From Candidatus Parcubacteria bacterium (lineage in GTDB: Bacteria; Patescibacteriota; Saccharimonadia; UBA4664; JBIOIQ01): a stretch of DNA of 64,000 bases. The notes beneath the pieces were generated by a model. It did not search any database. It was not told where the DNA came from and was given only the letters and a program-made list of their open reading frames with translations. Of the stretch, positions 2,137 to 54,037 are shown piece after piece. The stretch lies in NCBI GenBank assembly GCA_963718875.1, contig OY970378.1:477373-541372 (forward strand). Reading direction: 5' to 3'. A program made the translations under genes and the position numbers. Position 1 is the stretch's first letter. Every line of letters begins with the position of its first letter.

Positions 2137-2842
2137 AACCAGGTGAGGTGATCTGGTAGTCCGCAACTCGGCGGATGATTTGACTGTGGGGGTAGCTACG
2201 TGCAGTGCAGATCCAGTAAGGCTGTGATTTTAAGGCGAGCGTCCGTCAGGATCATACGACTTAGAGAGGAGCTTGATGCTATCCGGCGTGCGATTCGGGA
2301 TGTTCACCCTGGTCTCAAGATGGAAGATCTGGAGGGAATGAGTGGCAGTGAGCTACTTGAGCTTTGCGCTCTGGGCTTGATGGGTGAGCCCAGTTCACTC
2401 CGAACGGTTTATCCGGGTTGCGACCAGGAGGACTTTTCGATCACAGCTACTCGGCTCGCATGACCGCTCGCAGGGGTGGCCTTGTGCTGGTGCGAGTTGA
2501 AGGAGCGAAGGGCATTGGTTTCACGTTCCGAACCCTTGTTCCTGGCATCTGCCCGACCGACCGCATCAAGCCGGTGAGTGCACCGAGCGGGAAGCAGAAG
2601 TGGCGGCCGTGAAAGGTCAAGTCACGCTCCAGCAGGTGCGAGATCTCAGGGAAGGGCTGGTGGCGGCACTTGAGGCTGCCTTTCCAGGTTCGATGTTCTG
2701 CCACCTTTCCCTCAAAGAGCTCGCTCTTCTGGAATACGGGGACATTGACTGGCATCAGTACGTTTCCAGTCCATAAAGCATCAACGGATGCAGTCCCGCC
2801 ACCCCTGGGCTACCAAGCTCGGGGGTGGCGGGTTTCGCTTTT
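2137..2842 (+). other. GC-rich (~60%) transcription unit with four serially overlapping small ORFs (21, 41, 50 and 55 aa); either a small-ORF operon or a frameshifted foreign pseudogene
   Basis: AGAGGAG precedes an ATG at 2276 (21 aa, frame 2). ATGA overlap at 2338 starts a 41-aa ORF (frame 1). ATGA overlap at 2460 starts a 50-aa ORF (frame 3). GTGA overlap at 2609 starts a 55-aa ORF (frame 2). An intrinsic terminator closes the unit at 2795-2842. Confidence 0.4.
2795..2842 (+). terminator. rho-independent terminator (11-bp GC stem cccgccacccc/ggggtggcggg followed by a T-run)
   Basis: Perfect inverted repeat followed by TTTCGCTTTT. Confidence 0.7.
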
Positions 2843-2861
2843 AATGAGTTATTATTGGGTT

Positions 2862-3212
2862 ATGAATGATTGTTTATTTTGTTCGATTGCCAATGGCGAT
2901 GTTGAAAAGTTGGTGTGGAGTAATGATGTGGCAGCGGCTTTTAATGATATTAACCCCAAGGCACCTGTACACATCCTGGTGGTGCCCAAGCAACATATTG
3001 AAAATCTCGATGAACTAGACGATCCGGGGCTCGCCGGTAAGCTTTTGATGGCAGTAAGGGAAGTGGCCGTGCAGGCGGGGGTAAAAGGGGCGTATCGCGT
3101 GCATTTGAATAACGGAGAAGCGGCTGGACAGGTTATTCCGCATCTGCATTGGCATATATTGGCGAGAAGTTCTGTAAATGAGTTGGATAAATTACGGGAT
3201 CAAGGGTTGTAA
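2862..3212 (+). CDS. HIT (histidine triad) family protein
   Basis: HLHWHIL histidine-triad motif. The N-terminus MNDCLFCSIANGD is typical of Hint proteins. Confidence 0.85.
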   Translation: MNDCLFCSIANGDVEKLVWSNDVAAAFNDINPKAPVHILVVPKQHIENLDELDDPGLAGKLLMAVREVAVQAGVKGAYRVHLNNGEAAGQVIPHLHWHILARSSVNELDKLRDQGL

Positions 3213-3232
3213 GCTCAAAACGATCGTTTTTA

Positions 3233-3261
3233 TTGACCTTATGTGGATTCTAGCTTAGTAT
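3233..3261 (+). promoter_or_regulatory. sigma70-like promoter TTGACC-N17-TAGTAT
   Basis: Hexamers with 17-nt spacing, immediately upstream of a GC-rich non-coding block. Confidence 0.5.
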
Positions 3262-3267
3262 ATTTCT

Positions 3268-3606
3268 TGCTTTACAACTCAACCGAACCAGGGGGTCTTC
3301 GCTGTGTCAGGCAGAATCGACCGGCCAAGAAGCGGCAAGCATGCGGCGCACGATTCTACGAGGCATTACCGCAACTGGAGAGCTCTTCCCGATCAGGGTT
3401 CGGAAGCATCGACAGCTTCTGAGCTACAGAGTGGAGGTTCTTCGTCAACACCGGCGGTCCGTATTGACCGGAGGCGGTCTCTGAGCGCACTTCTGTCACC
3501 GCAACAGCTTCGTCGGCTTTCGTCGTAACCAACAACAGCCTGGGTTCTCGAGCTTTTGCCACCTGGCCTGCACGAAGTTGTGTGGGTCAGGTGGCTGTTC
3601 TTTTTT
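3268..3606 (+). ncRNA. candidate structured ncRNA (~340 nt; class undetermined, RNase P RNA/tmRNA/SRP-like not confirmed)
   Basis: A promoter lies at 3233-3261. The block is ~57% GC in an AT-rich intergenic region. Its only ORF is a low-complexity R/S-rich 74-codon frame. The 3' end carries an 8-bp stem (gccacctg/caggtggc) plus TTCTTTTTT. Confidence 0.35.
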
Positions 3607-3723
3607 AGGTTGATTGAACGCATGTTTTGTTGTAAAATGCTTTAGTCGTAAGAGCATTGTCTCTTGGAAGCCATATAATAACTAATATGGCTTTATATCA
3701 CACTTTTGAAGGAGGTGATTGTA

Positions 3724-3936
3724 TTGTTGCAAGTAGTCCGCAAGGATGAAAAAGAGTCTCTAGAAAATCTAATTCGCCGCTTTAATAAAAAAGTTCAGCA
3801 ATCGGGAATTCTAGGTATAGCTCGTCGTAAAAAATATTTTGAGAAGCCTTTAAGTAAGCGTGAACAGCGCGAAATTGCCATTCGCAAATCTGCCCGTAAG
3901 GAGCTTAAAGCTAAACAATATTTGGGTGTAAAATAA
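3724..3936 (+). CDS. rpsU: 30S ribosomal protein S21
   Basis: IRRFNKK...YFEKP signature. GAAGGAGG Shine-Dalgarno at 3709-3715 with a TTG start (exact start codon uncertain). Confidence 0.85.
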   Translation: MLQVVRKDEKESLENLIRRFNKKVQQSGILGIARRKKYFEKPLSKREQREIAIRKSARKELKAKQYLGVK

Positions 3937-4379
3937 TGTCATTATTTTCGCAAATTGAATCCGATCTCGTAACGGCTATGAAGGAGCATAATGAAGCTCG
4001 CACGGCCGTTTTGCGCTTGCTAAAAAATGCGCTCAAGAACGAAGAAATTAAGTTGCGCCGTGAACTTACGCCCGAGGAGTCATTAAAAATACTCCAGCGC
4101 GAATCAAAGCAGCGCCGTGATTCAATTACGGCTTATGAACAAGGAGGTAGGGTGGATTTGGCTGATGAAGAAAAGGCCGAACTTGTAGTAATATCGTCGT
4201 ATTTGCCCACCCTAATGAGTGAAGAAGAATTGAATACAATTATTGCTCAAGTAGTAAACGAAACCGGTGCACAGAGCATGAATCAAATGGGTGAGGTGAT
4301 TGGTAAGGTTATGGCTATAACGGCCGGCAAAGCCGAGGGTGGAACTGTATCACGCCTGGTAAAGCAAAAACTTGGCTAG
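3936..4379 (+). CDS. GatB/YqeY domain protein
   Basis: YqeY-like sequence; the conserved position downstream of rpsU supports the call. Confidence 0.75.
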   Translation: MSLFSQIESDLVTAMKEHNEARTAVLRLLKNALKNEEIKLRRELTPEESLKILQRESKQRRDSITAYEQGGRVDLADEEKAELVVISSYLPTLMSEEELNTIIAQVVNETGAQSMNQMGEVIGKVMAITAGKAEGGTVSRLVKQKLG

Positions 4380-4857
4380 TTTAGAGCTTATTGTCGTGGG
4401 CGAAATTCCTGCTGCACTTGAATTAACGCCTACCTATGTAGTTATAAAACTGCTTAATGAAATAGCAGCCGAACGGCATCTAAGCGGGGTAATTAATCTC
4501 AAGCTAGTTGACGACAAGACTATACAAGCATTAAATGATACATATAGCGGTAATGATTACGCTACTGATGTATTAACTTTTAGCTATATTGAAAGTATGG
4601 AAAGTAAAAACCAAGTGCTAAATCATGAACCAGATGAACTGGGGGATATGCTAATAAGCATCGAGACGGCTCAGCGACAGGCGGATGTGGCCGGTACAAC
4701 TTTAGCCGATGAGCTGGCTACCCTGGTTTTACATGGAGTGTTGCATATATTTGGGTATGACCATGCTGAACCTAGAGATAGAGAGGCTATGGATTTACTC
4801 CAATCAGAGTTGCTCCAGCAAGCTAACGTAACTTATAGGAATTTTAATTGGGCCTAA
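4372..4857 (+). CDS. ybeY: endoribonuclease YbeY (rRNA maturation factor)
   Basis: HGVLHIFGYDH metal-binding motif. Confidence 0.85.
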   Translation: MASLELIVVGEIPAALELTPTYVVIKLLNEIAAERHLSGVINLKLVDDKTIQALNDTYSGNDYATDVLTFSYIESMESKNQVLNHEPDELGDMLISIETAQRQADVAGTTLADELATLVLHGVLHIFGYDHAEPRDREAMDLLQSELLQQANVTYRNFNWA

Positions 4858-5234
4858 GTCGTTTAGTTAAAGGCTTTAAGTATGCTTTTATAGGCTTGGG
4901 GAATATTTTGCGCACCGAGCAGAATGCTCGGGTTCATTTGGCGATTGCCGTAATTGTGCTGGCGTTAGGTTTTGCGTTTGGAATAAGTCCGGCCGAGCTA
5001 GCAGCTATATTCTTTGCTATTATTATTGTTTTTGTAGCGGAAGTTCTTAATACGGCCATTGAAAAAACACTTGATTTAATTGAGCCTGAGCACAACGGTA
5101 AGGTGGCAATTATCAAGGACATGGCAGCTGGTGCTGTTCTTGTGGCAGCTGGTGGAGCGATTATTATTGGTGCAGTTATCTTTTGGCCATATATACTGCC
5201 ATTTACGTTTGGAGCATCATGGCTGCCCCTGTAA
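4848..5234 (+). CDS. dgkA: diacylglycerol/undecaprenol kinase
   Basis: Three TM helices and a DgkA-like NTAIE motif. Confidence 0.75.
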   Translation: MGLSRLVKGFKYAFIGLGNILRTEQNARVHLAIAVIVLALGFAFGISPAELAAIFFAIIIVFVAEVLNTAIEKTLDLIEPEHNGKVAIIKDMAAGAVLVAAGGAIIIGAVIFWPYILPFTFGASWLPL

Positions 5235-5758
5235 TTATTGTTTTAGGTCCTCCTGGAGCTGGCAAGGGTACGCAATGTATACTTCTGGCTGATAGACTCG
5301 GTGCTGTGCATTTATCTAGCGGCGAAATACTACGCAAAAGTAAGGATCCATTGGTGCTGGACCGCCTTGCGTCAGGCAAGTTGATGCTTGTAAACCTATT
5401 TCGCCGAGCAGTTGAAGAAGCCTTGAATCAAATCCCTGATTCACAGCCAATCATATTGGATGGAGTTGGGCGTATGAGAAGTGAGGTTAAGTGGCTGTTG
5501 CGGCAATTACAACAACGAAAGCGGTCAATTAAAGCTGTAATAAACTTAGTCGTTGGGCAGAATGAGGCTTTGAAGCGTAATGCGGTACGGGGGCGTTTAG
5601 ATGACAATGCCGAGGTCCAAGGTGAGAGATGGAGAGAATATAATCGTCATATGCTGCAAACTATGGAGGTCTATCGACAACAAGGGTTATTGAGGGATGT
5701 GGACGGCATGGGTAGTGTCGAAGAGGTGGCCGAAAGAGTTCGGAGGGAGTTGGGTTGA
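5219..5758 (+). CDS. adk: adenylate kinase family protein (short, no obvious lid domain)
   Basis: P-loop GPPGAGKGTQ; start taken at the ATG preceding this motif. Confidence 0.7.
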   Translation: MAAPVIIVLGPPGAGKGTQCILLADRLGAVHLSSGEILRKSKDPLVLDRLASGKLMLVNLFRRAVEEALNQIPDSQPIILDGVGRMRSEVKWLLRQLQQRKRSIKAVINLVVGQNEALKRNAVRGRLDDNAEVQGERWREYNRHMLQTMEVYRQQGLLRDVDGMGSVEEVAERVRRELG

Positions 5759-6519
5759 AACCTAAAACGGCACAGGAAATCGTCAATATTCGTGAGAGCG
5801 GAAGCATATTAGCAACAATATTAAAGTTCCTAAAGAGTCAGGCTGTTGTGGGTATTACAACAGGTGAGCTGGCTGATATAGCATCAAGTGAACTTGAAAA
5901 GTACGGTGCGAGTTCGCCGTTTTTGCATTATGGCGCAGGTAGAGGTATACCACCATTTCCTAGTGTTATCTGCATATCTTTGAATGATGAAGTGGTTCAT
6001 GGCATACCTGGGGAACGGGAAATAAACTCAGGCGACATTGTCAGTTTAGATTTTGGCGTCAATTACAGCGGTATGATTACCGATAGCGCGGTTAGTTTTG
6101 GCGTGGGGAAGGTTCCGGCTGATGTGAAGCGCTTGTTGAGGGCTACATCTGACTCTTTGATGGAAGGGATTATGCAGGTTCGGGCTGGTGCAAGAGTTGG
6201 AGATATTTCGGCTGCGGTGGAAACTAGATTGCGTCAGGACAAGCTGGGTGTGGTAGAAGATTTGGCTGGTCATGGTGTGGGCCATTCATTACACGAGGAG
6301 CCTTGGATCCCCAATTTTGGGAAGGCTGGTAAAGGGATGAAGCTTAAAGCTGGCATGACCATTGCCATAGAGCCAATGGCTACTTTGGGTCGAAAGGATG
6401 TTTTGTGGGGGATGGATGGATGGACCATTACTACCTTGGATGGTTCGTTGGCGGCGCATTTTGAGCATTCAATTTTAGTAACGGACGAGGGTTATGAGGT
6501 CCTAACCGAGTGGAAGTAA
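5755..6519 (+). CDS. map: methionine aminopeptidase type I
   Basis: Metal-binding residues in D...D...HGxGH...E...E context (HGVGHSLHEEP, AIEPM). Confidence 0.9.
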   Translation: MKPKTAQEIVNIRESGSILATILKFLKSQAVVGITTGELADIASSELEKYGASSPFLHYGAGRGIPPFPSVICISLNDEVVHGIPGEREINSGDIVSLDFGVNYSGMITDSAVSFGVGKVPADVKRLLRATSDSLMEGIMQVRAGARVGDISAAVETRLRQDKLGVVEDLAGHGVGHSLHEEPWIPNFGKAGKGMKLKAGMTIAIEPMATLGRKDVLWGMDGWTITTLDGSLAAHFEHSILVTDEGYEVLTEWK

Positions 6520-6623
6520 GTCAAAAGGTTTGATTAAAAGAAGTGCTATACTAGAAAAGCTTTAAAGGCTGTGCTTTTAGGGCATAAGCGTTATGATATA
6601 ATAAACTTAAGAAAAAAATTATT

Positions 6624-7859
6624 ATGGCAGCTAAACCGCAGGAACAAACCTACATAGGCCTTGATATAGGCAGCACAAAAGTGTGTTGTATTGTTGGTTT
6701 ACACGAAGAAGGCTCACCAACGCCTAGTGTTATTGGTGTGGGTATTGCACCTACTAACGGTATGCGGCGTGGCGTGGTTGTAGATATTGAAGAAACGGTC
6801 AGCTCTATAACAGCGGCGGTTGATGAAGCCGAGCGTATTTCGGGTATTGCGATTGATCGGGCTACTATAAGTATTGATGGTGCAAATGTTACCAGTATGA
6901 ACTCCAAAGGAGTAATAGCTGTAGGGAGGGCTGATCAAGAGATTACAGTAGAGGATTTACACCGGGCCGAAGAAGCGGCTACGGCGGTGCATTTGCCTCC
7001 TAATCGAGAAATTTTACAAGTATTTCCGCGGAGTTATACCGTAGACGGCCAAGTAAACATTAAGGACCCAGTTGGTATGAATGGGGTGCGACTTGAGGTT
7101 GAAACTCATATTATTACTGGAGCTACACCGGCGATAAAAAATCTTAACAGAAGTATTTACCAAGCGGGGATAGACATTGAAGGTCAGGTGTTAGTGCCAC
7201 TCGCCGCTGCACGGGCCGTGTTATCGAAACGCCAAAAAGAGCTTGGCGTGGCTTTGGTTGACATTGGAGGCGGTACCACGGGAGTAGCGGTTTATGAAGA
7301 GGGCGACGTGCTGTACAGTAGTGTTTTGCCGGTTGGTTCGTCTCATATTACTAATGATTTGGCTATAGGGCTAAGGACAAACGTTGATATTGCGGAAAAA
7401 ATTAAGCTTCGATATGCCAAGGCTGATCATCACAAATCAGGTGGTACTGAAAAAATTAGGATCGAAGAGCTTGAAGGGGATGAAGTGTTAGTTAGTCGGA
7501 GGGAGCTTAATAAAATTGTTGGTGCCCGGCTTGACGAGATATTTCAAATGGTGAGGGCGGAATTGCGCCAGGCTTCAAAGGATGTAATGTTACCGGCCGG
7601 AATCGTGCTCACGGGTGGAGGGGCCAAGCTAGAGGGGATAGAGGAATACGCACGAGAATCGCTTAAGCTGCCTGTGATTATAGGCAAGCCTGAAGGGCTG
7701 TCTGGAATGATTGATAAGATTAGTGATCCGGCTTTTGCTGCGCCTGTAGGTTTAATGCTCGAGAATATTGGCTATACTGGGTCTACCGACCGGACTAATG
7801 CCAAACTTGGCGCAACGGTCGATAAGATTAAACAGACTTTGCGCAATCTACTGCCATAA
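6624..7859 (+). CDS. ftsA: cell division protein FtsA
   Basis: Actin-fold N-terminus YIGLDIGSTKV; adjacent to ftsZ. Confidence 0.9.
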   Translation: MAAKPQEQTYIGLDIGSTKVCCIVGLHEEGSPTPSVIGVGIAPTNGMRRGVVVDIEETVSSITAAVDEAERISGIAIDRATISIDGANVTSMNSKGVIAVGRADQEITVEDLHRAEEAATAVHLPPNREILQVFPRSYTVDGQVNIKDPVGMNGVRLEVETHIITGATPAIKNLNRSIYQAGIDIEGQVLVPLAAARAVLSKRQKELGVALVDIGGGTTGVAVYEEGDVLYSSVLPVGSSHITNDLAIGLRTNVDIAEKIKLRYAKADHHKSGGTEKIRIEELEGDEVLVSRRELNKIVGARLDEIFQMVRAELRQASKDVMLPAGIVLTGGGAKLEGIEEYARESLKLPVIIGKPEGLSGMIDKISDPAFAAPVGLMLENIGYTGSTDRTNAKLGATVDKIKQTLRNLLP

Positions 7860-7930
7860 TATTTTTACATCTGATAATAAAATTAGTTTCAAAAAACAAA
7901 CATTGGCTTTTTTCTTTTCCCAATGCTAAA

Positions 7931-7962
7931 AAACATATTTTTTGAATAAAAAATATGTTCAG
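7931..7962. promoter_or_regulatory. AT-rich 12-bp perfect inverted repeat (AACATATTTTTT-N4-AAAAAATATGTT) in the ftsA-ftsZ intergenic region
   Basis: Seen directly. A TTGCAT-N17-TATACT promoter follows at 7994-8022. Confidence 0.4.
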
Positions 7963-8099
7963 AAAATTTATAAAATAAAACTGAATAAACTATTTGCATT
8001 ATTGTAACGCTAGTCATATACTGGTGATTGTACTTTTGACGCTTGTATTAAGCGATGTCCAGTCAAACTAAGTACTTGTGGTAAGGAGCCCTCACGTTT

Positions 8100-9416
8100 A
8101 TGGCGGAAATACTTCCAGAAGTCGAGACTTTTGCTCGAATCAAGGTGATCGGTGTTGGTGGCGGTGGTGGAGCCGCTGTCGAACGAATGATAAAGAGCAA
8201 GGTACAAGGCATAGAGTTCGTGGCCGTGAATACAGACGCGCAAGCTTTGCATTATTCACACGCACAAAGAAAGCTTAATATTGGGAAGCAAACAACCCGC
8301 GGGTTGGGAGCCGGAGCAGATCCAGAAGTTGGTCGAAAAGCAGCCGAAGAGAGCGAGAATGAAATTGCCGAGCTGCTCAAAGGTGCCGATATGGTTTTTA
8401 TTACAATTGGTGCTGGCGGTGGTACCGGTACCGGGGCGGCTCCTATAATTGCAGCAACAGCTCGTGAAACTGGGGCTTTAGTTGTTGGTATAGCTACTAA
8501 GCCATTTACCTTTGAAGGTGAGCGTCGTAGGCGTATTGCAGATGCTGGTATTATTGAGCTTAAAGACAATGTTGATACGCTAATAACAATTCCTAATGAT
8601 CGATTGTTGCAGATGATTGACCGAAAAACGTCGCTTTTGGACGCATTTAGTGTGGTTGATGAAGTTTTGCAACAAGGTGTACAAGGTATATCAGATCTTA
8701 TAACCATTAATGGGTTAATAAACTTAGACTTTGCTGATGTCAAAGCTATTATGCATAATGCGGGTTCGGCATTAATGGGAATCGGCCGTGCCTCTGGAGA
8801 CAATCGAGCGATTGAGGCTGCTCGTCAAGCTATCGATTCTCCTTTACTAGAAGTATCTATTGATGGCGCCAAAGGTGTCTTACTTAATATTACGGGTGGT
8901 CGTAATATGACCATGCATGAGATTGATGAGGCAGCTAAAACAATTACTGGCGCCGTTGATCCTGATGCCAATATTATTTTTGGAGCTGTTCTTGACGAGT
9001 CGTTGGATGATGATATAAAAATTACGGTAGTGGCAACCGGTTTTGAAAATAAGCCCCGTGAAAGGCTTGATCACCATCGAGTTCCTGAGCAAGAACCCGA
9101 ACCCGAGGTCTACACGAGTCCCGTGCTGGCGGAAAACCGTAAGCCCTTTATTGACGAACGCCCCCGCTTTAGTGAGCCGGATGAGGTTGTGGACGAGCCA
9201 GTCATTAGCCCAAGAACAGTTAGCCCACTTGGTAGCATTGAACCAGAGCCCGAAAATTACGATGAGCCGGATAGCTTTTTAAATGATACTCCTCGTCGAA
9301 TGCTGGAAGGGCCTATGATTGAAAAGGCTGAAGAACCCGCTGCTACGGCTAACCGTGATATACCTAGTGATGATGATTTAGATATACCTGCCTTTATTCG
9401 CCGCAAGGTTGAGTGA
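8100..9416 (+). CDS. ftsZ: cell division GTPase FtsZ
   Basis: Tubulin signature [10 protein letters not shown] and an acidic C-terminal tail. Confidence 0.95.
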
Positions 9417-9420
9417 TAGA

Positions 9421-9540
9421 CGCTTTCTAAGTGCGCTCTACAGGATCACTCCTGCGGCTATGCACTCCGCGTACCTAGTGTACGTCTCGCTTGCGTTGCT
9501 CGTCGTTCTTTGCAGTGCATCACTTAGAAATCCTCTATGA
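9421..9540. repeat. palindromic repeat family, copy A
   Basis: Shares the core ...cactccgcgtacc...gtacgtctcgcttgcgttgctcgtcgttctttgcag... with the copies at 10196, 51181 and 55491. Confidence 0.55.
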
Positions 9541-9574
9541 AGATTGCTTGCTCTTTTGTTCGCCAAGGGTGTTC

Positions 9575-9850
9575 ATCTTTTTCCAATGTCGTCCCGACAC
9601 CTTGCCTTGATTAAGATAGGTACCACCAAACTGTCAGTACTTTTTATTTTTAGCTCTTTAGTCCAGCCTAAGACCGTTTGAGATGATTTATGTCTTTTTT
9701 GGTGTTATCTCAAGTTTATGGCATTCAAAGTCTAAGTTCTGTAGCGAGGGTAACTTATAATCCTTTTGGCTGCCTAAGGTAGTACTTTGACTACTGACAG
9801 TTTGGTGGTGCCTAGTTAAAACACCACCAGTGGATGTGTCTGGTTGATAC
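9575..9850. mobile_element. MITE-like element, copy 1 (internal 22-bp terminal inverted repeats GGTACCACCAAACTGTCAGTAC)
   Basis: Its reverse complement matches 26831-27085 almost base for base. It has internal TIRs and no ORF. Confidence 0.7.
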
Positions 9851-10002
9851 TTTTATAAATGGTATTCGTGATGAATCCCGGCGTTAATTTAAAGAGAGCT
9901 CAAGGCCATTAAAAAGCCACCGTGAGCTCTTTGAAGATCCATTTCGCTACTTAAAAGTATGGCCGTTTTTCGTTTAAGTGGACAGAACCGAAGCCTTTGT
10001 GC

Positions 10003-10031
10003 TTGACAGGCTTAATGGGTTTCGCTAATAT
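10003..10031 (+). promoter_or_regulatory. consensus sigma70 promoter TTGACA-N17-TAATAT
   Basis: TTGACA at 10003-10008 and TAATAT at 10026-10031. Confidence 0.6.
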
Positions 10032-10038
10032 AGCATTC

Positions 10039-10140
10039 ATGAAGTCTCAAAAAATGTGTGTACAACTAACCACGACTCGCCGACAAGCTTTGGCTCTTGG
10101 CGTTTTAATTGTGGCCGCACGCAGTGAGAGGCTTTTGTAA
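10039..10140 (+). CDS. putative leaderless 33-aa hydrophobic peptide (MKSQKMCVQLTTTRRQALALGVLIVAARSERLL); the unit could instead be an sRNA
   Basis: The ATG lies ~8 nt downstream of the -10 hexamer with no Shine-Dalgarno. A terminator hairpin follows at 10168-10195. Confidence 0.3.
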   Translation: MKSQKMCVQLTTTRRQALALGVLIVAARSERLL

Positions 10141-10167
10141 CTTTTCCTAAAGAGTAGAATTTTTGCA

Positions 10168-10195
10168 AGAGCCTCCAACCGGAGGCTCTTTTTAG
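10168..10195 (+). terminator. rho-independent terminator (agagcctcc-aacc-ggaggctct + TTTTT)
   Basis: Perfect 9-bp stem followed by a T-run. Confidence 0.7.
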
Positions 10196-10322
10196 TTTTA
10201 CAACTTACGTACTTGGCACATTTCTGCGGCAGCACTTGTGTTTCTCGCTCAACGTACTTTCGTGTACGTCTCGTTGCGATACTCGGTGCTTTCTTGAACT
10301 GTACTCAAGTGCATAAGTTGTA
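10196..10322. repeat. palindromic repeat family, copy B
   Basis: Its ends aacttacgtacttggcacatttc...actcaagtgcataagtt form an imperfect long palindrome, closely matching the copy at 55491-55628. Confidence 0.6.
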
Positions 10323-10335
10323 AGAATAGCGTTAT

Positions 10336-10411
10336 GGGGACTAGGTGTCTGGGCTATGACACGTCTTGCATTATCGGTGCAAGGAAGGAGGTTCAAATCC
10401 TCAAGTCTCCA
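10336..10411 (+). tRNA. tRNA-like element (non-canonical; possible pseudo-tRNA or integration-site remnant)
   Basis: 7-bp acceptor pairing (GGGGACU/AGUCUCC). T-arm GGAGG-TTCAAAT-CCTC. D-arm GUGU/ACAC. Anticodon arm with a 7-nt loop UUAUCGG. Three extra nucleotides between the D and anticodon arms, and no encoded CCA. Confidence 0.35.
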
Positions 10412-10419
10412 CTGCAGTA

Positions 10420-10890
10420 CCTACCAAAACCAAAAAAGGGGAAAGTAGTGAGAAATTCTGTTCGAAGCCTCCCTGGATGGACCACCTGTTCTCTTCACTT
10501 TGGGGCGAGTTCTATCGCAGAAGCTCGGGTGAAAGCTCTAGGGTTGGTGGGCATGGCCGATGACGCCTCAGTTAAGGCGGCATTAAGGGGCTGGACCATC
10601 AGGCAGGTGATAGTTCGGGATGAGCGTTTCATCGCTTTGGTCGCAGAGCTAGAAGTTCTTGGAGTACATCTCAAAGAAAAGGGCGTTCCGCGCTCGTGGA
10701 GGGTCTCGAAAGAAGAAGCTTCAACTCTCGCTGCTCAGTAGTACAGGGAGTCGTCCATCTGATGGGAGGAAGCCCAAACAGGGTGGACAAGGGTGCTGCA
10801 AAAAGTTTTAAAGTTGGCGATCCTAACTTTGAGACTTGGCCTCCGAAAGACGTGATAACAGCGTGTCTTTTGGGGGCCTTACCCATGTTA
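10420..10890 (+). other. GC-rich (~55-58%) foreign-looking segment with protein-like but fragmented frames (e.g. MADDASVKAALRGWTIRQVIVRDERFIALVAELEVLGVHLKEKGVPRSW)
   Basis: GC content is elevated. Overlapping ORFs on both strands with no clean gene; it sits beside the tRNA-like element. Confidence 0.35.
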
Positions 10891-10900
10891 TAATTTACGT

Positions 10901-11162
10901 CATGATAGCCTACATTTTGTACAATAAAGATACCCCAATGGAGCGCGATGTACGGTATTTTGCCAAGCGTCTCGAATCGTTACAGGTGCAAAGCAAACTA
11001 GTTGAAGCCGATTCAGTTGAAGGAATTAGTTTTACGGAAAATTATGACTTACTTGCTCGACCGTCGCTTGTTTTAGCTACAGACAATGGCGTACTTATTG
11101 AGCGTTGGCAGGGTGAGCTACCTTTGGTGGAAAATGTAAGTTATTTGGCTCACCAATCGTGA
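10901..11162 (+). CDS. hypothetical small protein (~87 aa)
   Basis: ORF with native AT-rich composition; no recognisable motif. Confidence 0.4.
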
Positions 11163-11227
11163 CGCAAAAATGCTCTTGTCGCTCAATGGGCTGTCCCGGC
11201 AAGTACTTTCAAGAAAGTTGGTCGTAG

Positions 11228-11500
11228 GTGAGCCAGTTTGTAAGCATTCTGTTAGTGTTTTTTAACTTATTTGTTATTGCCTTTAATGCTATTTTGATTA
11301 TACGGATTGTTGTAAGCTGGATTATGCCCGACATGCAGGCAAATTGGTTTGGTCGCTTATTGATTGATACAACTGAACCAATATTGGCACCGGTGAGGAA
11401 AATTTTACCGGGGGGTGGAATGATTGATTTGGCGCCGATGGTGACAATAATTGGTCTTTACGCCTTGCGAACATTGATATTTAGTTTGCTATTTCGCTAG
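11228..11500 (+). CDS. yggT: YggT family membrane protein
   Basis: SWIMP...TEPILAPVRKILP...IDLAPMV pattern typical of YggT. Confidence 0.75.
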   Translation: MSQFVSILLVFFNLFVIAFNAILIIRIVVSWIMPDMQANWFGRLLIDTTEPILAPVRKILPGGGMIDLAPMVTIIGLYALRTLIFSLLFR

Positions 11501-11534
11501 CAATGCGTCATTATGTGGGTACAAAGTAAAAGCG

Positions 11535-11715
11535 TGTCGACTAAATGACAAGTGGTTATCAGCCACTAGCTAGCGAGAAGAACAGCAAGCTAATTGCCTA
11601 CTAGACCTTGCCGGTGTGCCCCGTAAGAGCACAAATGAAGTGTCCATCTGGATAAGCAGGGTGGTACCTCCCGTTAGAAGTAATGGGACCCTGCAAACGG
11701 ATGGTTTTTTTATTG
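11535..11715 (+). promoter_or_regulatory. T-box leader upstream of ileS
   Basis: T-box-like AGGGTGGTACC. A terminator/antiterminator helix (ACCTCCCGTT...AACGGATGGT) plus a U7 run lies just before the ileS start. Confidence 0.55.
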
Positions 11716-11728
11716 TAGGAGATGAAGA

Positions 11729-14700
11729 ATGAAAAAAGTCGAACAAGCTAACTTTCCCGAATTTGAGCAAGAGATGCTTAAAATATGGGATAAGGAAAAG
11801 ACTTTTGAACAAAGCCTAGAGCTACGAAAAGGATCCAAGCGGTTTAGTTTTTACGATGGGCCTCCTTTTGCTAATGGCCTGCCACATTATGGACACGTTG
11901 TAGCAATCACCGAAAAGGATTCGATGACACGTTACAAAACTATGCGTGGGTATTTTGTGCCTCGCCGGAATGGTTGGGACACTCATGGGCTACCGGTAGA
12001 GTATGAAGTCGAAAAACAGTTAGGTATTTCAGGGAAAAAACAGATACAGGAAATGGGAGTAGATAAGTTTAATGAAGCCGCCAGGGCCAGTGTCTTTAAA
12101 TACAAAGAGCATTGGGAAGATTTTATGACTCGTATTGGCCGATGGGCCGATAAAAACTCGTATGCTACTTTGGACGATAGCTATATTGAAAGTGTTTGGT
12201 GGGTTTTAGGTCAGCTTCATGAAAAGGGTTTGATATATCGAGGATTCCGCTCTAACCCGTATTGCCCACGATGCGCCACTCCTCTTTCTAATTTTGAGGT
12301 GAACCAGAATTATAAGGACAATGTGTTGGACCCAAGCGTTTTTGTGAAGTTCGCTTTGGTTGAAGATCCGAACACAAGCCTGCTGGCTTGGACGACGACT
12401 CCATGGACGCTTCCGGCCAATGCGGCTTTGGCTGTTGATTCGGCGGCTGAATACGTGACGGTAGAATTGTTGGCGGATGGTGATGGTTGGGAAAAGGGGG
12501 AGAAGCTGATACTCGCGAAGAAGCGGATTGGTGAACTGGATCTGAGGAAGGCTGAGTATAAGGTAGTTAAAACACAGCAGGGCAAAGAGTTAGTCAATAA
12601 AATGTACTCTTCATTGTATGACTTGGCGATGAAAAGGCCTCCCGTTGAGTGGTCAGGTGCATCCGAAGGTCAACCTGGCCGCCCCAGAGCCAACCAAGTT
12701 TATGAGGATGACTCGGTTAGTCTTGAGGATGGGACCGGTATTTTACATATTGCTCCAAGATATGGAGAAGCCGATCTAGATTTGGGCATTAGGGAAGACT
12801 TGCCACTAATAGAAAGCGTTGATGGTAATGGACTTATGGCGGAGTCTTTTAAAGAAATTTCCGGGCTTGAAGACATTGTCGGGATGTTTTTTAAGAAGGC
12901 TGACCCGTTAATTATCGAGGATCTAGCTAAAAAAGGTCGCATCTTTGCCGCCGAATCTTTTGAGCATACTTACCCGTTTTGTTGGCGCTGCGAAACGCCG
13001 TTGATGTATTTTGCTATGCCGAGCTGGTTTGTAAAGGTAACAGAATTAAGAGACAAGCTGGTGGCTAACAACGAAAAAATCAATTGGGTGCCTAAGCATA
13101 TTAAGACTGGTCGTTTTGGTAATTGGCTGGCCGAGGCGCGCGACTGGAATTTTAGCCGCAATCGGTTTTGGGGTGCGCCTATCCCAATTTGGGTTAATGT
13201 GGACGACGAAACTGACTTGATCATAATCAAGTCAGTCCAAGAGCTGGAAGAGCTTTCTGGAGTTAAAGGAATTGATTTGCATCGTCCGAGTATAGATGTG
13301 GTTATACTCGAGCGCGACGGCAAAACATATAAACGAGTGGAAGAGGTGTTTGACTGCTGGTTTGAAAGCGGGTCAATGCCTTATGCCCAAGATCATTATC
13401 CGTTTGATGATAAAGAGAATTTTGATGATAAATTTCCGGCGGAGTTTATAGCCGAAGGCTTGGATCAGACGCGGGGCTGGTTTTACACCCTCCATGTTCT
13501 TGGCACGGCTTTGTTTGACAAGCCGGCGTTTAAGAATGTTATTGTTCACGGAATGGTTCTGGCGGCAGACGGGAAAAAGCTTAGTAAAAGATTAAGAAAT
13601 TACCCTGAACCATCAGAAATTTTTAATGGGACTGGAGCTGATAGTCTAAGGTTTTTCCTTATGAGTAGCCCAGTTGAAAATGGCGAAGATGTTCGTTTTA
13701 GCTACGATGCAGTCAATGAAGTTAAGCGCAACGTCTTTATGACGCTATGGAACGTCTTATCCTTCTTTACGACCTATGCCGAAATTGATAAATGGAAACC
13801 GAATACAAAAATTGTACAGCCTAAATCAAATAATGTCTTAGACGAATGGATGCTTGTAAGGCTAAACCAAACAACAGCCATCATGACGAAAGCGGCGGAT
13901 AGCTACCAGATTTCAAAAGCCGTAGAACCTTTAAAGGACTTGATTGACGATTTATCCAATTGGTACGTAAGACGTAGTAGGCGAAGGTTTGCCAAGAACG
14001 AAAGTAAGGCTGATAAGCTTCAAGCATTTGAAACGTTGCACTACGTATTGTTGCGAACTTCACAACTACTTGCACCTTGGTCGCCGTTTGTAAGCGATAA
14101 GGTGTGGCGAATTATTACCGAGGGAATGGATATTCCCCGCTCTGTGCATTTGAGTGACTGGCCGGAAGTTGGAGAAATTAGTAATGGAATATTACTCAAT
14201 GACATGAAAGAAATGCGTGATTTAGTTACCGAAGGTTTGGCTCAGAGGGCGGCAGCAGGAATTAAGGTGCGCCAGCCTTTAGCAGATGCACGATACGCAG
14301 GCAAAAAGCTGGATGATAGGTTAGTTGAAATTGCGGCCGAAGAGCTCAACGTCAAGCGACTTATAAATGACCCCACAGAAGAGGAAATTTCAAGTCGATT
14401 TGAAAAGATTGTTCCCGGTTCGACTGGTTTCAAACATGAGCCAGGGTTGCCGTCCAAACTGGTTTCCGTAAGTCGATTGGATAATCTTGTTGATCAAGAT
14501 TCTGGTGTCGAACAACTTGAAGAAAGTTTGAGTATAAAAAAAATAATATTGAATACTGAAATGACTCAAGAGTTAAAGCTGGAAGGCTTGGCGCGGGATC
14601 TTATACGCCAAGTGCAAGTTGCGCGCAAAGAGGCCGATCTTCAAGCCAATGACGTCATAAATCTGCTACTTGGAGTTGAAGGCGAGGCTGCAGAGGCGGC

Positions 14701-14830: not shown

Positions 14831-14873
14831 TTCGGGTCGGCTTGATGCATAAAAAGCTGTACAATATACGGTA

Positions 14874-15983: not shown

Positions 15984-16013
15984 AAATTTATAAAACACTG
16001 GCTTTGTTTTTTT

Positions 16014-16022
16014 TGATATAAT
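16014..16022 (+). promoter_or_regulatory. extended -10 promoter (TGaTATAAT)
   Basis: TGnTATAAT motif directly upstream of the GC-rich block. Confidence 0.4.
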
Positions 16023-16028
16023 CGAGGT

Positions 16029-16834: not shown

Positions 16835-16860
16835 AAAGCCGCCCAACCGGGCGGTTTTTT
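16835..16860 (+). terminator. rho-independent terminator (gccgcccaaccgggcgg + T6)
   Basis: GC stem followed by TTTTTT immediately after the rplU stop. Confidence 0.75.
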
Positions 16861-16888
16861 AGTTAAGGCTCAAATATTGGATTGCTAC

Positions 16889-19446: not shown

Positions 19447-19452
19447 GATTTG

Positions 19453-41237: not shown

Positions 41238-41315
41238 ACTTGTGAAGACACTTTTTTTGCGCTAAATTAAAGCCAGCGCCGGACCAGCCGTCGCCTGTTT
41301 CGTGGAGGATGAATC

Positions 41316-41723: not shown

Positions 41724-41736
41724 TTGCTGCGCAACA

Positions 41737-41778
41737 TGATCCACCGTCGGTGGGGGGTTATCCCTCCACCGACGGTGG
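41737..41778 (+). terminator. 15-bp perfect inverted repeat hairpin (ATCCACCGTCGGTGG...CCACCGACGGTGGAT)
   Basis: Seen directly; GC-rich stem without a strong T-run. Confidence 0.5.
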
Positions 41779-41830
41779 ATTTAAGGTCACGGATTTATTA
41801 TTTAGCTACAAAGACGTATAATAGTAGTCA

Positions 41831-50813: not shown

Positions 50814-50963
50814 AGTTTAAATCTGTTGGCACATCCTCCTAAATTAGTTGGCATAGTGCTAGTAAAATTCGCTATAAAAGGTATAAAGTTTGTAATTGTA
50901 ACCAATTATACTTACCGTGTCATTGAATTTTAAAGCTTATGTTTAGCACAAGTACTAAAAGTA

Positions 50964-50992
50964 TTGACTTTAATTACTCAATGTGGTATATT
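50964..50992 (+). promoter_or_regulatory. sigma70 promoter TTGACT-N17-TATATT followed by a ~110-nt structured leader (15-bp enclosing stem GCGGGGATTTGTGAG/CTCACAAACCCCCGC, 51003-51110)
   Basis: Hexamers and the long-range stem were seen directly. Confidence 0.45.
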
Positions 50993-51180
50993 GAATTATC
51001 TTCGTTTTTTGCGGGGATTTGTGAGAGTGGCCAATGCCATATGGCCTTGATGCGAGAGTATCAAATAACTATTTTTCCGAACCGCTAAGATCGTTCGGCT
51101 CACAAACCCCCGCATTAAAGACGGCGACCTTTGACAGTCGAATAATCTAAGATCATTAGAGAAACGGCTTGCAACTTTGG

Positions 51181-51300
51181 CTTATTTCGTCGTTGCAGCT
51201 TGCGCTCCGCACTCACCGTACCATTAAGTACGGTTCGCTTGCGGTGCTCGCTGCGCCTAGAACTAAGTCCAGATTTGCAAGCCTTGCAAGAAGTACAAAT
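51181..51300. repeat. palindromic repeat family, copy C (upstream border of the GC-rich island)
   Basis: Shares gcgctccgcactc...ttcgcttgcggtgctcg with the copies at 9421, 10196 and 55491. Confidence 0.55.
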
Positions 51301-51512
51301 ACAAATCTAATACAAAATACTTGCTTCGCATTAACCTGCAAGCAGTTATTGTTTCGTTAACTAGGGGAGACCTATGATGTTAGCGAAACGTTATCTGCTT
51401 GCATGAAACTGTGCAAGCGAGGATTCGACACTTAGTCGAATTCAGTTGCTCTACCGAACATACAGAAACCACAGACCAGGGTGAGAACTCTGGCAGAGCA
51501 AAGGAAAAGACC

Positions 51513-52448
51513 ATGTCCGACCAGACCGGAGGACCCGGTACCACCGCCCCACCCCGCCGACCCACGCTCCAGGAGCTCGCCGACCAGGCGAGAGCCACGA
51601 TCGAGGAGCAGGCTCGACAGGCGAATGACCTCCAGGGTCAGCGCTCCGCCATCAACGCGATCAGCGGTCGAGTGGCGCAGCACGACGACGCCATCGCTGA
51701 CCTCCGGGACGCTTCGGCCCAGCAGGCCGACGCCGTGGACCGCCTCGGCCAGCGCACGCTGGTGGTCGAGGGACGCACGGACTCGTTGGAGGACTTGGCT
51801 CGCGCCAACGCCGCCGGCGTGGCCGGGCTGACCGCCAACATGGCTGACCTGACCACCAACGTCAACACGCTGGCCACCACGGTGGGCCAGCACGACACCC
51901 GTCTCGACGCCGTCGAGGACGCCGTGACGCCGGCCGCTATGCGGACGGTCGTCACCGAGGTGGTCGAGGAGCGCATGCGCGCTGTTCGGTTCAACTGGGT
52001 GGCCTTCGCCGTGGTGGCGATCGTGGGCTTCATCATCGACCTGTTGGTGTTCTCCGAGATGGGGAGCTTCAACAGCGCCGAGGCGCCGAAGCTCTCCAAG
52101 CACCTCACGGACGTCATGCACACGCAGAACTTCCTGGCCGTCATGCTCGTTGTCCTGGCCCTCGCCATACTCATCGCCCTCATCGTTCCGGTGGTCGGGC
52201 AGGACGAGCGTCCCAGGCAGGACCGCCAGCCCAGGCCGCCTCGGCAGCCCGGATCCGGCGGTGGTTTCATGGCCGGTCTTCGCAACGTTTGGAGGAGGGG
52301 TCGCGGTACGCCCGCTGCCACTGCGCCCATCCCGGCCAACTCCACGCCGGTGGCGACGACGAACCCGTCGGCCTCGTCCAACGCGCCCACTCAGGTGCTG
52401 CCGGCGGTGCCGACGTCCGGTCCGACGCCCTCATCGGGCAACCCGTAG
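51513..52448 (+). CDS. GC-rich (~68%) foreign gene: coiled-coil membrane protein with two TM helices and a Pro/Ser/Thr-rich tail
   Basis: AGGAAAAG precedes the ATG. GC3 ~90%. Ala/Asp-rich heptad-like N-terminal region, then two hydrophobic helices. The overlapping antisense ORFs are GC-shadow ORFs. Confidence 0.6.
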   Translation: MSDQTGGPGTTAPPRRPTLQELADQARATIEEQARQANDLQGQRSAINAISGRVAQHDDAIADLRDASAQQADAVDRLGQRTLVVEGRTDSLEDLARANAAGVAGLTANMADLTTNVNTLATTVGQHDTRLDAVEDAVTPAAMRTVVTEVVEERMRAVRFNWVAFAVVAIVGFIIDLLVFSEMGSFNSAEAPKLSKHLTDVMHTQNFLAVMLVVLALAILIALIVPVVGQDERPRQDRQPRPPRQPGSGGGFMAGLRNVWRRGRGTPAATAPIPANSTPVATTNPSASSNAPTQVLPAVPTSGPTPSSGNP

Positions 52449-52518
52449 TCCACGCGGTTCTTCAAGTGGATTGTCCCAATTCAAATACCTCCTAGCGTCA
52501 AGCAAAGAGGGAACAACC

Positions 52519-52549
52519 CTCTGTCCGCCCTTCGGGGCGGACAGAGGAG
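52519..52549 (+). terminator. 13-bp perfect hairpin (cctctgtccgccc-ttcg-gggcggacagagg)
   Basis: Seen directly, between the two island genes. Confidence 0.55.
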
Positions 52550-52647
52550 CAACTTTTACTTCCATGGATAGTAGTCCGCGTGAGAAGCAATTCTTACTCG
52601 GTTTCTGTTCATGGTGCAATCGGCACCCAAACGATAAGGAGGGTGCC

Positions 52648-53826
52648 ATGAGCACCAGAAGAGGTCCTGTTCTGATCATCGTGTGTCTGCTGATGGCAGC
52701 GGGGGCTTTGCTGTTCAAGTACGGCAACGGCCCAACGCCGGCAGTGGCACAGACGCCGCCCACGGTGCCCGTTTCGGACGTCTGCAAGGACGTCCCGGGC
52801 AACGTGCCGAGGTGGTTTGCCAAGGAGACCGACGGCAACAAGTTCGGTCCGGCGGCTCCGTTTGACCTTGGTCCCGCCAGGAAGGCTCAGCACGAGGTCC
52901 TGTGCCTCGACCCGGCCAACCTGGTGATCACCCAGGAGACCATCGACGGGAAGTTCAGCAGTCCGGCAAACCGGGCTGCCCGGACTCGCGTTCTCGTTGC
53001 CAACCCCACTGCGCGGTTGGCAGCGGTGGCCTATGTGCAGGCAGAGTTGGCCAAGGCCAAGGAGGTTCGGCTGGAGGTCCACACGGGACCCTACCAGACC
53101 TTCTACATGACCACCGACGGCGACGTGCCGGAGGTGTTCCAGTCTGCAGGGAGCTTCACCGAGGCACGGCACGTTCTCGTGTACGACTTCGGTAACGGTC
53201 GCACGGTCAACTTCGTACTGGAGTGCAACTTCCAGGGGGAGTTCCCCGGGCCGGTCAAGAACGTGCCGGTGGCAACGCCGGGCACTGTGCCGGCGCTGGT
53301 TCAGCCGGGGCCCACCAGCCCGCCGCCGACGACGTGCCAGTCGACCAACACCTGTTCGACCGTGACCAGCCCACCGCCCGTGTGCTGCGGACCGCCCCCG
53401 ACGACGTGTCAGGTCAACTGCGGTCCGCCCCCGACGACGTGTCAGGTCAACTGCGGTCCGCCGCCGACGACGTGTCAGGTCAACTGCGGTCCGCCGCCGA
53501 CGACGTGTCAGGTCAACTGCGGTCCGCCGCCGACCGTTTGCACACACAAGTGCGCGGGAGAGGACGTTGCGGTCAGTCCGAGTCTGGATCCTGTCGTTTC
53601 GGGACTGGCTGCGGGCAATGCCGCACCCACTGCGGTGGCAACACCGGTCGTGACGGCGCCTCCGGCGCCGCCTCCGCCCGTGACCACAGCCACGCCACCC
53701 GTGACGGCTCTGCCGTCCTCCGATGGCGTGGCAGCTCCACCGCCTGTAGTGGCTCCACCGTACGTGGCGCCCGATGCGGGCACTCCGTCCAACCCGACGA
53801 CGGGAACCATTCCGCCGCCGCCGTAG
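52648..53826 (+). CDS. GC-rich foreign gene: secreted/membrane-anchored protein with five CGPPPTTCQVN Cys-containing tandem repeats and a Pro-rich tail
   Basis: AAGGAGGG Shine-Dalgarno precedes the ATG at 52648. N-terminal hydrophobic signal/anchor. Repeats of 33 bp at 53386-53553. Confidence 0.6.
   Translation: MSTRRGPVLIIVCLLMAAGALLFKYGNGPTPAVAQTPPTVPVSDVCKDVPGNVPRWFAKETDGNKFGPAAPFDLGPARKAQHEVLCLDPANLVITQETIDGKFSSPANRAARTRVLVANPTARLAAVAYVQAELAKAKEVRLEVHTGPYQTFYMTTDGDVPEVFQSAGSFTEARHVLVYDFGNGRTVNFVLECNFQGEFPGPVKNVPVATPGTVPALVQPGPTSPPPTTCQSTNTCSTVTSPPPVCCGPPPTTCQVNCGPPPTTCQVNCGPPPTTCQVNCGPPPTTCQVNCGPPPTVCTHKCAGEDVAVSPSLDPVVSGLAAGNAAPTAVATPVVTAPPAPPPPVTTATPPVTALPSSDGVAAPPPVVAPPYVAPDAGTPSNPTTGTIPPPP
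53386..53553 (+). repeat. 33-bp tandem repeat x5 (ggtccgcc[c/g]ccgacgacgtgtcaggtcaactgc) encoding GPPPTTCQVNC
   Basis: Four near-identical copies plus one degenerate copy, seen directly. Confidence 0.85.
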
Positions 53827-54037
53827 GACACCACTTCTGCCCATTCGGGCAGGGGTCTACCCCAGGGTCTGGGGTGGTGCGCAAGCGCCACCCCGCCCTG
53901 TGGGTATACATATTCTTAATGATTTTGGATTATTCGATTGCTCCAAGGGTTAGTGCCCTTTAACATTTAGCGTCCAACTTAACTTGTAGATCATATTAAA
54001 TTCATTTTAACGTTCATTATTTAAAAGGAGAGCACAT

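Follow-up and report, generated by a model that had tools for sequence, protein, structure and literature searches.

Anomalies of GC content and codon usage are routinely taken as evidence of horizontal gene transfer (HGT) in bacterial chromosomes, and in episymbionts of the Candidate Phyla Radiation (CPR) they are also read as hints of the host. The model reportedly set out by Lawrence and Ochman is one of compositionally atypical, horizontally acquired islands and their amelioration, and most bacterial islands are AT-richer than the core genome. A different route to local compositional change, GC-biased gene conversion, is said to have been described in bacteria by Lassalle et al. in 2015. 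For Patescibacteria, work on HGT (mSystems 2025) reported genomic islands together with single transferred genes, with exchange mostly among Patescibacteria themselves (PMC12455944). Here we analyse a 64,000 nt stretch (the window) of contig OY970378.1, assembly GCA_963718875.1, positions 477,373 to 541,372, filed under Candidatus Parcubacteria bacterium, and in it five GC-rich segments, i1 to i5, which a preliminary description had tentatively explained by repeated gene acquisition from an actinobacterial host followed by promoter capture.

We conclude, with a probability of about 0.6, that most of these segments are resident parts of a Saccharimonadia chromosome which keep up a GC excess, and are not recent inserts; segment i3, which carries a GRDP-like gene, is the exception. 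Positional counterparts exist in other Saccharimonadia for i1 (in genome L002), for i4 (L172 and L173) and for the two genes of i5, i5a and i5b (L081 and L083), and absence from the same locus in relatives is true of i3 only. Like acquired islands, the segments are discrete, deviate in GC, in GC at third codon positions (GC3) and in GC skew, and hold accessory genes of mostly unknown function, a description that i3 fits. Unlike such islands, i1, i4 and i5 keep their positions in distant relatives and stay GC-rich despite saturation of their synonymous sites; no mobility genes were recognised in them, their homologues are confined to the lineage, and they are GC-richer, not AT-richer, than their surroundings. 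The Patescibacteria transfers were detected by similarity between donor and recipient (PMC12455944), whereas for the loci here no donor could be detected, and their synteny is conserved. Compositional islands and HGT in Patescibacteria are thus already known; what differs here is that most of the islands are syntenic, lineage-restricted and persistently GC-rich, and a limited literature search found no published account of persistently GC-rich resident loci in Saccharibacteria.

The best matches of the window's IleRS among 185,579 species genomes are Saccharimonadia or Saccharibacteria metagenome-assembled genomes, at up to 70% identity. The organism is accordingly assigned, from its encoded proteins, to Saccharimonadia (TM7, within the CPR), as had been proposed, and this agrees with a class I LysRS, an LPATG surface protein and a PcsB-like CHAP protein. 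Gene order around IleRS is kept over about 25 kb in more than 15 relatives, and it is the short variable slots between the conserved genes that hold the GC-rich segments. GC content among the relatives ranges from 45% to 59%. Those with an IleRS 63-67% identical to that of the window have 58-59% GC, with a median GC3 of 0.70-0.75 and a maximum of 0.83, so a high-GC donor, were one required, need not be actinobacterial.

GC content is 45.9% for the window as a whole and 44.5% once the flagged intervals are set aside. Each interval was scored (z) against background windows of its own length outside those intervals:

2137-2842, segment i1: GC 57.4%, z 5.4
10420-10890, segment i2: GC 51.6%, z 2.4, reached by 27 of 2224 background windows
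16954-17548, segment i3: GC 59.7%, z 5.9
41260-41790, segment i4: GC 58.8%, z 5.3
51360-53900, segment i5: GC 65.7%, z 14.9
3264-3603, a sixth unit, absent from the preliminary description: GC 56.8%, z 3.6

No background window of equal length reaches the GC of i1, i3, i4 or i5. The range of 58-68% GC given earlier holds for i3, i4 and i5 and nearly for i1, and fails for 10420-10890. Native open reading frames (ORFs) of at least 200 aa have a GC3 of 0.418 (sd 0.033, n = 34), compared with 0.65 for the i3 gene (16954-17499), 0.64 for the i4 gene (41316-41723), 0.88 and 0.78 for i5a (51513-52448) and i5b (52648-53826), 0.51 for the i2 ORF (10448-10741) and 0.53-0.61 for ORFs inside i1. The term GC3-saturated therefore suits the genes at 51.5-53.8 kb and overstates the case for i1, i2, i3 and i4 (0.51-0.65). 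Both C and G are raised at third positions of the GC-rich genes, whose products have a combined Gly, Ala, Arg and Pro fraction of 0.30-0.39 versus 0.23-0.26 for those of native housekeeping genes. Over i5 and the first part of i3 the GC skew is around zero or below, and it is positive elsewhere in the window.

As read from the DNA, the segments are stand-alone transcription units, each running from an AT-rich promoter of the sigma70 type through a GC-rich region to a long hairpin, also GC-rich, and they encode small, lineage-restricted, very fast-evolving proteins between housekeeping genes in a rigidly syntenic backbone. This architecture had been recognised beforehand, including the native-looking promoters at 2101 (12 of 12 consensus positions) and 16889 (11 of 12), which are the two top-scoring matches in positions 1-20000. 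The hairpins at the segment ends are likewise real, two of them perfect:

2795-2832, hairpin after i1, 17 pairs
3558-3595, hairpin of the sixth unit, 17 pairs
17515-17548, + strand, hairpin after i3, 14 nt arms, perfect
41739-41780, + strand, hairpin after i4, 19 nt arms, 95% complementary
52518-52547, hairpin after i5a, 13 nt arms, perfect
53871-53894, hairpin after i5b, 10 nt arms, 90% complementary

GC-rich units in conserved slots

Segment i4 lies between the genes for LysRS and SerRS and consists of:

41240-41283, + strand, promoter and transcript start: TTGTGA, 17 nt spacer, TAAATT, then conserved AGCGCCGGA
41316-41723, + strand, i4 gene: 135 aa, TTG start, GGAGGA ribosome-binding site, GC 59%, GC3 0.64

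The protein belongs to a small family marked by a TPxDPCGC motif. A word-indexed search of 5.8 billion proteins returned only i4 itself, and HMMER, run exhaustively over 1.84 billion representatives, recovered five relatives at 31-44% identity. The two of these with readable DNA, P0057 and P0056, from L172 and L173, are also encoded between LysRS and SerRS, and in both genomes the order is that of the window, with MreB-MreC-MreD-PBP2-GreA upstream of the slot and S30AE-SecA downstream. The promoter was read by eye, as a consensus scanner stayed silent with only 8 of 12 positions matching; L172 has TTGTGA, 17 nt and TATATT, and L173 TTGTTA, 17 nt and TAGATT, each followed by AGCGCCGGA, so that one layout (TTGTKA, 17 nt spacer, TAnATT, AGCGCCGGA) describes all three loci. 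A long GC-rich hairpin ends the unit in each of them. The counterparts have 61% and 60% GC and a GC3 of 0.68 and 0.70 in L172 and L173, against 0.40-0.55 in flanking genes. Mutual identity of the three i4 proteins is 33-37%, while their neighbours are far better conserved: 95% for MreB (L172 only), 77-79% for SecA, 77-79% for S30AE and 70-74% for PBP2. An AlphaFold model built from six sequences reached a pLDDT of 94.3 and had no fold match among solved structures. The confident fold and the positional orthologues together argue that i4 is a real, conserved and fast-evolving protein.

Two further observations concern the genes on either side of this slot. LysRS (window 38892-41237) is class I in the window and in L172; L173 (5865-7823) has a class II enzyme with a DUF2000 domain, which amounts to a predicted displacement of one aminoacyl-tRNA synthetase class by another inside one syntenic block. 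SerRS, next to it, is unusually diverged, at 40-49% identity versus 77-79% for SecA.

Segment i5 is a two-gene cassette that precedes a gene for a surface protein:

50964-51512, + strand, promoter-like site (50964-50992) and long leader of i5a
51513-52448, + strand, i5a: 311 aa, coiled-coil N-terminal part, hydrophobic membrane segment, Pro-rich tail, GC 69%
52648-53826, + strand, i5b: 392 aa, N-terminal hydrophobic segment, globular domain, repeats, Pro-rich tail, GC 67%
54038-55318, + strand, surface-protein gene: native GC of 48%, signal peptide, C-terminal LPATG sorting signal

Only two homologues of i5b were found among the 5.8 billion proteins, and they are in L081 and L083. The gene upstream of the L081 homologue is 45% identical to i5a over the membrane segment, and L083 has a gene of i5a architecture at the same position. 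The genes that follow the i5b homologues encode proteins 45-48% identical to the surface protein, so that the order of i5a-like, i5b-like and surface-protein gene is common to the window, L081 and L083. L083 is moreover syntenic with the window from SerRS and SecA to RF2, FtsE, FtsX, PcsB, CtpA and PyrG. GC content of the cassette is 67-69% in the window, 64-69% in L081 and 57-61% in L083, compared with 44-52% for the surrounding genes; the remainder of the L083 locus has about 47%, and the surface-protein gene of L081, at native GC, has 51%. The pairwise identities of i5b (48, 35 and 33%) and of the surface protein (48, 45 and 39%) rank the genome pairs in the same order, as co-inheritance would predict. 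A metagenome scan with SecA, aimed at close relatives that span the i4 and i5 slots, gave matches of 46-62% identity, none with an i4 or i5 homologue, SecA being too conserved a query for this purpose.

The products of this module would face outwards. i5b is predicted to be a secreted or anchored protein; its structure model is of low confidence (pLDDT 42.5). At 53385-53534 its gene holds 4.5 copies of a 33 nt repeat, 98% identical, encoding GPPPTTCQVNC units, and copies this alike suggest that the array expanded or was homogenised recently. Cys/Pro-rich repeats also occur in the L081 and L083 homologues; they are related to those of i5b without being the same. The neighbouring translation starts MKAQILKRIAASVAVLAIGLVPFVAGAAS and ends LPATGAEGALAGIFGTAGIGYSLRSYLRSKR, and its signal peptide, LPXTG-type motif, hydrophobic stretch and basic tail mark it as a predicted sortase-anchored surface protein.

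Upstream of i5a, 50814-51512 forms a 700 nt non-coding leader. Within it, window 51121-51172 is 81% identical to L081 355-406, which lies upstream of the L081 cassette. In L081 this stretch is followed by an extra gene of 227 aa that has no counterpart in the window.

Segment i1 is conserved in its slot and control signals more than in its body. Its neighbours are a gene for a small membrane protein (1791-2048) and the HIT gene (2862-3212), and the sixth unit lies between the HIT gene and rpsU:

2101-2130, + strand, sigma70-type promoter of i1: TTGACA, 18 nt spacer, TATAAT, 12 of 12 consensus positions
2137-2842, + strand, i1: GC-rich transcription unit of about 700 nt that ends in hairpin 2795-2832
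3233-3605, + strand, sixth unit: promoter-like site 3233-3261, GC-rich region 3264-3603, hairpin 3558-3595

The closest reference genome for this region is L002 (HflK-like protein 86% identical, S21 92%). There the slot holds a unit of 53% GC within a locus of 45.5% GC, with the same perfect promoter and a similar leader hairpin (L002 1249-1305) and also a terminal hairpin. The first 130 nt or so can be aligned with i1; the body of the unit cannot, and BLASTP detected no protein similarity between the first ORFs of i1 and the L002 unit. At the position of the sixth unit L002 has a gap of 239 nt only and no counterpart.

i1 may or may not code for protein. Three ORFs overlap in it, each in a frame of its own (2200-2463, 2418-2612 and 2600-2776); they were also considered as pieces of one frameshifted gene, and they have no Pfam, PHROG or PADLOC match and no homologue in the relatives' loci. 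One could suppose that certain segments, above all i1 and 3264-3603, are structured RNAs that encode no protein and owe their GC to folding. Both have a promoter and a terminator and lack a convincing ORF, the conserved part of i1 is a leader with hairpins, its two candidate starts stand in different frames relative to the conserved bases, and the full i1 transcript has a fold z of -5.3. That value shrinks to -2.0 without the terminator and leader hairpins, and the sixth unit, at +0.3, has no excess of RNA folding. Neither has an Rfam match even at E = 1, the body of i1 cannot be aligned to L002, and i3, i4 and i5 are clearly protein-coding, which leaves this explanation improbable. Across the whole window and the individual segments, Rfam matched no rRNA, tRNA or other family to any segment at gathering score, and at E values up to 1 the segments gave chance-level matches only.

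These arrangements bear directly on the proposal that each segment was recently and independently acquired from an actinobacterial host and was afterwards brought under a native promoter. With 67-69% GC and a GC3 of 0.78-0.88, i5 would suit a donor of 65-70% GC, GC skew is deviant in i5 and at the start of i3, and strong native-type promoters precede i1 and i3. Against this, the homologues of i4 and i5 occur only in related low-GC Saccharimonadia (among the 5.8 billion and 1.84 billion proteins), they occupy the same slots, i4 stands behind the same promoter layout, and i1 has its promoter and leader in common with L002. No close actinobacterial homologue was found for i3, i4 or i5b, the three that were searched, the best being a Streptomyces-labelled match of i3. 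Compared with one another, the segments have no common ends, repeats or cassette signatures and no pairs of repeats like those of diversity-generating retroelements, and PHROG and PADLOC scans found no mobility genes with them. The preliminary description had itself named best hits within the same low-GC lineage as the result that would speak against transfer, and this is what was found for i1, i4 and i5; a host-derived origin has support in one segment of the five at the most and, as a general explanation, is unlikely.

A prophage or defence island was also considered and rejected: no phage or defence family was matched in the segments by PHROG or PADLOC (only weak coiled-coil-type matches, E >0.002), and viral contigs hold no relative of i5b. 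Of the segments only i2 adjoins a tRNA-like element, and that one is degenerate. Assembly of high-GC fragments into a low-GC contig has nothing but composition in its favour. Every segment is bounded by native sequence on both sides, in intergenic spacers of a 1.19 Mb contig, and the layout is repeated in assemblies made independently from other samples (L002, L081, L083, L172, L173), which excludes chimerism for i1, i4 and i5 and makes it a negligible prospect overall.

Maintained composition and its possible causes

Third-base identity was assessed at four-fold codon boxes of conserved residues among the window, L172, L173, L081 and L083. Observed identity was 0.29-0.38 for PBP2, MreC and SecA (expected 0.25-0.26), 0.25-0.41 for i4 (expected 0.25-0.28), 0.30-0.37 for i5b (expected 0.29-0.32) and 0.19-0.42 for flanking genes overall (expected 0.24-0.34). 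Synonymous sites are thus at or near random identity, that is, saturated between these genomes. Even so, the GC3 of the outlier genes is 0.15-0.45 above the flanks in every lineage, and counterparts with readable DNA lie about 8 to 21 GC points above their own genomes. Saturation together with an excess in each lineage means that the composition is not a residue of import; the GC excess of i1, i4 and i5 is a present-day equilibrium maintained lineage by lineage.

The same data count against recent transfer from a host and against a single ancient transfer into the ancestor of the Saccharimonadia family with incomplete amelioration. The latter would account for conserved positions in several descendants and for a GC excess whose size varies by lineage. 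With four-fold sites near random, however, an inherited GC3 should have decayed, and it stays 0.15-0.45 above the flanks, so that we regard this history as very unlikely.

The main alternative is repeated replacement of alleles by recombination with syntenic Saccharimonadia of higher GC (58-59%). The GC3 of those relatives brackets that of i1, i3 and i4 and nearly reaches that of i5, the syntenic backbone would supply homologous flanks, and most transfers into Patescibacteria come from other Patescibacteria (PMC12455944). The flanking proteins are nevertheless 40-79% identical, far too diverged for homologous recombination, and the shifts in GC coincide with each unit's promoter and terminator, not with points inside the flanking genes. 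In addition, the GC3 of i5a (0.88) is above any value in the high-GC relatives, and no high-GC relative with i4 or i5 was found. We consider such replacement unlikely, if the most serious competitor to residence with a maintained excess.

As to what maintains the excess, we favour, with modest confidence, recombination-linked GC-biased gene conversion at loci under diversifying selection. Together the two would lift GC at every codon position, alter the amino-acid make-up and accelerate protein change. GC-biased gene conversion predicts a local rise of GC at often-recombining loci, strongest at third positions and with a knock-on effect on amino acids, and an offset relative to each genome's own baseline; the segments resemble this in their local rise, amino-acid effect and offset. 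They differ in that the excess here (GC3 +0.2 to +0.45) is confined to single genes and is far larger and sharper than reported genome-wide trends. Three other causes were tried and rejected. GC-biased mutation on weakly constrained DNA does not agree with native non-coding stretches, which are AT-rich (9417-10330 and 50814-51100). Expression-linked codon bias does not agree with rpsU, rplU and ftsZ, whose GC3 is only 0.32-0.42. Selection on mRNA structure fails as a general cause since fold z is inconsistent among the GC-rich genes; apart from the GRDP-like genes treated below, those tested range from +0.3 to -2.0, and native controls from +0.28 to -1.85.

GC outliers of this kind are not limited to the window. 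In relatives, nrdJ (class II ribonucleotide reductase, next to nrdR) is an outlier of 2.8 kb, with a GC3 of 0.73-0.89 versus 0.44-0.62 in five of six genomes (L007, L011, L013, L019 and L021), and two unrelated NrdJ types occupy the one position. The exception, L012, has an nrdJ of native GC that is 61% identical to the L013 copy with a GC3 of 0.89.

Several points weigh against residence with a maintained excess. Each case is based on only two or three orthologous loci, and the taxonomy of L081, L172 and L173 was inferred from synteny and identity, not from labels. Effects of GC-biased gene conversion reported in bacteria are much smaller than a GC3 excess of 0.25-0.45, as seen here. The contrast between the L012 and L013 nrdJ genes implies that an excess can be lost or gained quickly. 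In two other low-GC genomes, L084 and L086, the GRDP-like genes have a common neighbour, an S9 peptidase gene (49% identical), both being GC-rich, which blurs the classes of gained and resident genes. Finally, i1, i4 and i5 may be of ancient foreign origin, only composition as its residue being excluded.

More tentatively, small fast-evolving genes of Saccharimonadia, including a cell-surface module, may be held 8-21 GC points up by a process that drives GC at particular loci, and such genes are probably involved in host interaction. Candidates for the process are strong GC-biased gene conversion where recombination is concentrated, and selection that favours an actinobacterial, host-like composition in particular genes. 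If this is correct, a locus-specific GC drive operates in ultra-small, naturally competent episymbionts, and compositional outliers in Saccharimonadia mark fast-evolving resident genes, not foreign DNA. The compositional shortcut to HGT is wrong here for most segments, the outliers being position-conserved, lineage-restricted and maintained. Should the pattern be general in Saccharimonadia, counts of transferred genes based on composition would be inflated, and GC-rich single-gene units would offer a cheap marker for the fastest-evolving and probably host-facing genes of organisms that are hard to culture. It would also provide a clean bacterial system, open to population metagenomics, for the question of what keeps the base composition of neighbouring genes apart.

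The GRDP-like gene of the rplU-parA slot

Segment i3 behaves differently from the rest. Its promoter directly follows the rplU terminator (16839-16854):

16889-16917, + strand, sigma70-type promoter: TTGAAA, 17 nt spacer, TATAAT, 11 of 12 consensus positions
16954-17499, + strand, i3 gene: 181 aa GRDP-like / UCP032817-like protein with a Gly/Cys-rich tail, GC 60%

The ATG start follows an AGGAGG ribosome-binding site. The protein matches Pfam PF07173 at 25.4 bits (cut-off 22.7), and PF27765 is the precomputed annotation both of P0004, an identical protein in the database, and of all 50 homologues, which are 33-54% identical to i3 and have in common with it a VWHTHILDT...FPYLG core and the Gly/Cys-rich tail. 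In composition the gene stands far above its genome in GC, both here and in three more low-GC genomes. In contigs of 65-69% GC the family is found at native GC, and 38 plasmids carry a GRDP-like gene, mostly of Proteobacteria and four of Streptomyces. The three low-GC cases (L084, L086 and L171, on contigs of 45-50% GC) have genes of 63-66% GC with a GC3 of 0.79-0.84, at positions other than that of i3; the gene contexts in L084 and L171 are CPR-like. In a neighbour-joining tree the copies from low-GC contexts are scattered among the other copies.

The rplU-parA slot of the syntenic relatives examined holds no i3 and is either empty or filled with unrelated genes of native GC. The segment is best read as a horizontal gain from a high-GC pool with a plasmid-borne family, and it is the only one whose sequence and context suggest this. 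In this respect the earlier proposal of transfer was right for i3, and the presence of the family in Streptomyces and high-GC contigs, together with a slot in relatives that is empty of it, would even suit a host as the source. Evidence for an actinobacterial donor was not found: the best actinobacterial match, the Streptomyces-labelled protein, is 53% identical over 59% of i3 and no closer than others, and the plasmid matches are mostly from Proteobacteria. No match exceeds 54% identity, which is too little to point to a donor.

The i3 mRNA also stands out in folding, with a z of -5.3 to -6.4 against dinucleotide shuffles, as does that of the GRDP-like gene at L084 6001-6555 (z -4.6). Several perfect hairpins fall within the part that encodes the Gly/Cys-rich tail. 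Other family members do not behave in this way.

The FtsZ-IleRS stretch and minor features

Segment i2, which occupies the stretch between FtsZ and IleRS, is a marginal, weakly GC-elevated segment. The features concerned are:

10336-10411, + strand, tRNA-like element directly upstream of i2, called 'tRNA-Asp (atc)' by ARAGORN
10448-10741, + strand, i2 ORF: 97 aa, GTG start, GC 54%, GC3 0.51

The ORF has no PHROG or PADLOC family match and no tblastn match in the relatives' loci examined. In several relatives nrdR-nrdJ fill the equivalent stretch, and we considered i2 as a remnant of them; it has no similarity to these genes, and none is left in 9417-10330 either.

The tRNA-like element reaches 22.9 bits with the Rfam tRNA model, for which the gathering score is 29, and its anticodon loop is over-long. 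Eleven of 13 relatives have no tRNA at this position, and L021 has a tRNA-Pro in the equivalent stretch. The element may be a decayed tRNA or an old integration scar. Just upstream, about 900 nt of this otherwise compact genome (window 9417-10330) have no ORF of more than 62 aa; a promoter-like site lies within them at 10003 (10 of 12 consensus positions), as does a clean terminator at 10167-10190.

Elsewhere in the window the heptamer CAAGATA occurs in tandem, in 4.4-4.6 copies, at 33395-33425 and at 57710-57741. The first array directly precedes mreB (33430) and the second precedes ftsX (57817), and the array may represent a shared regulatory or slippage-prone element.

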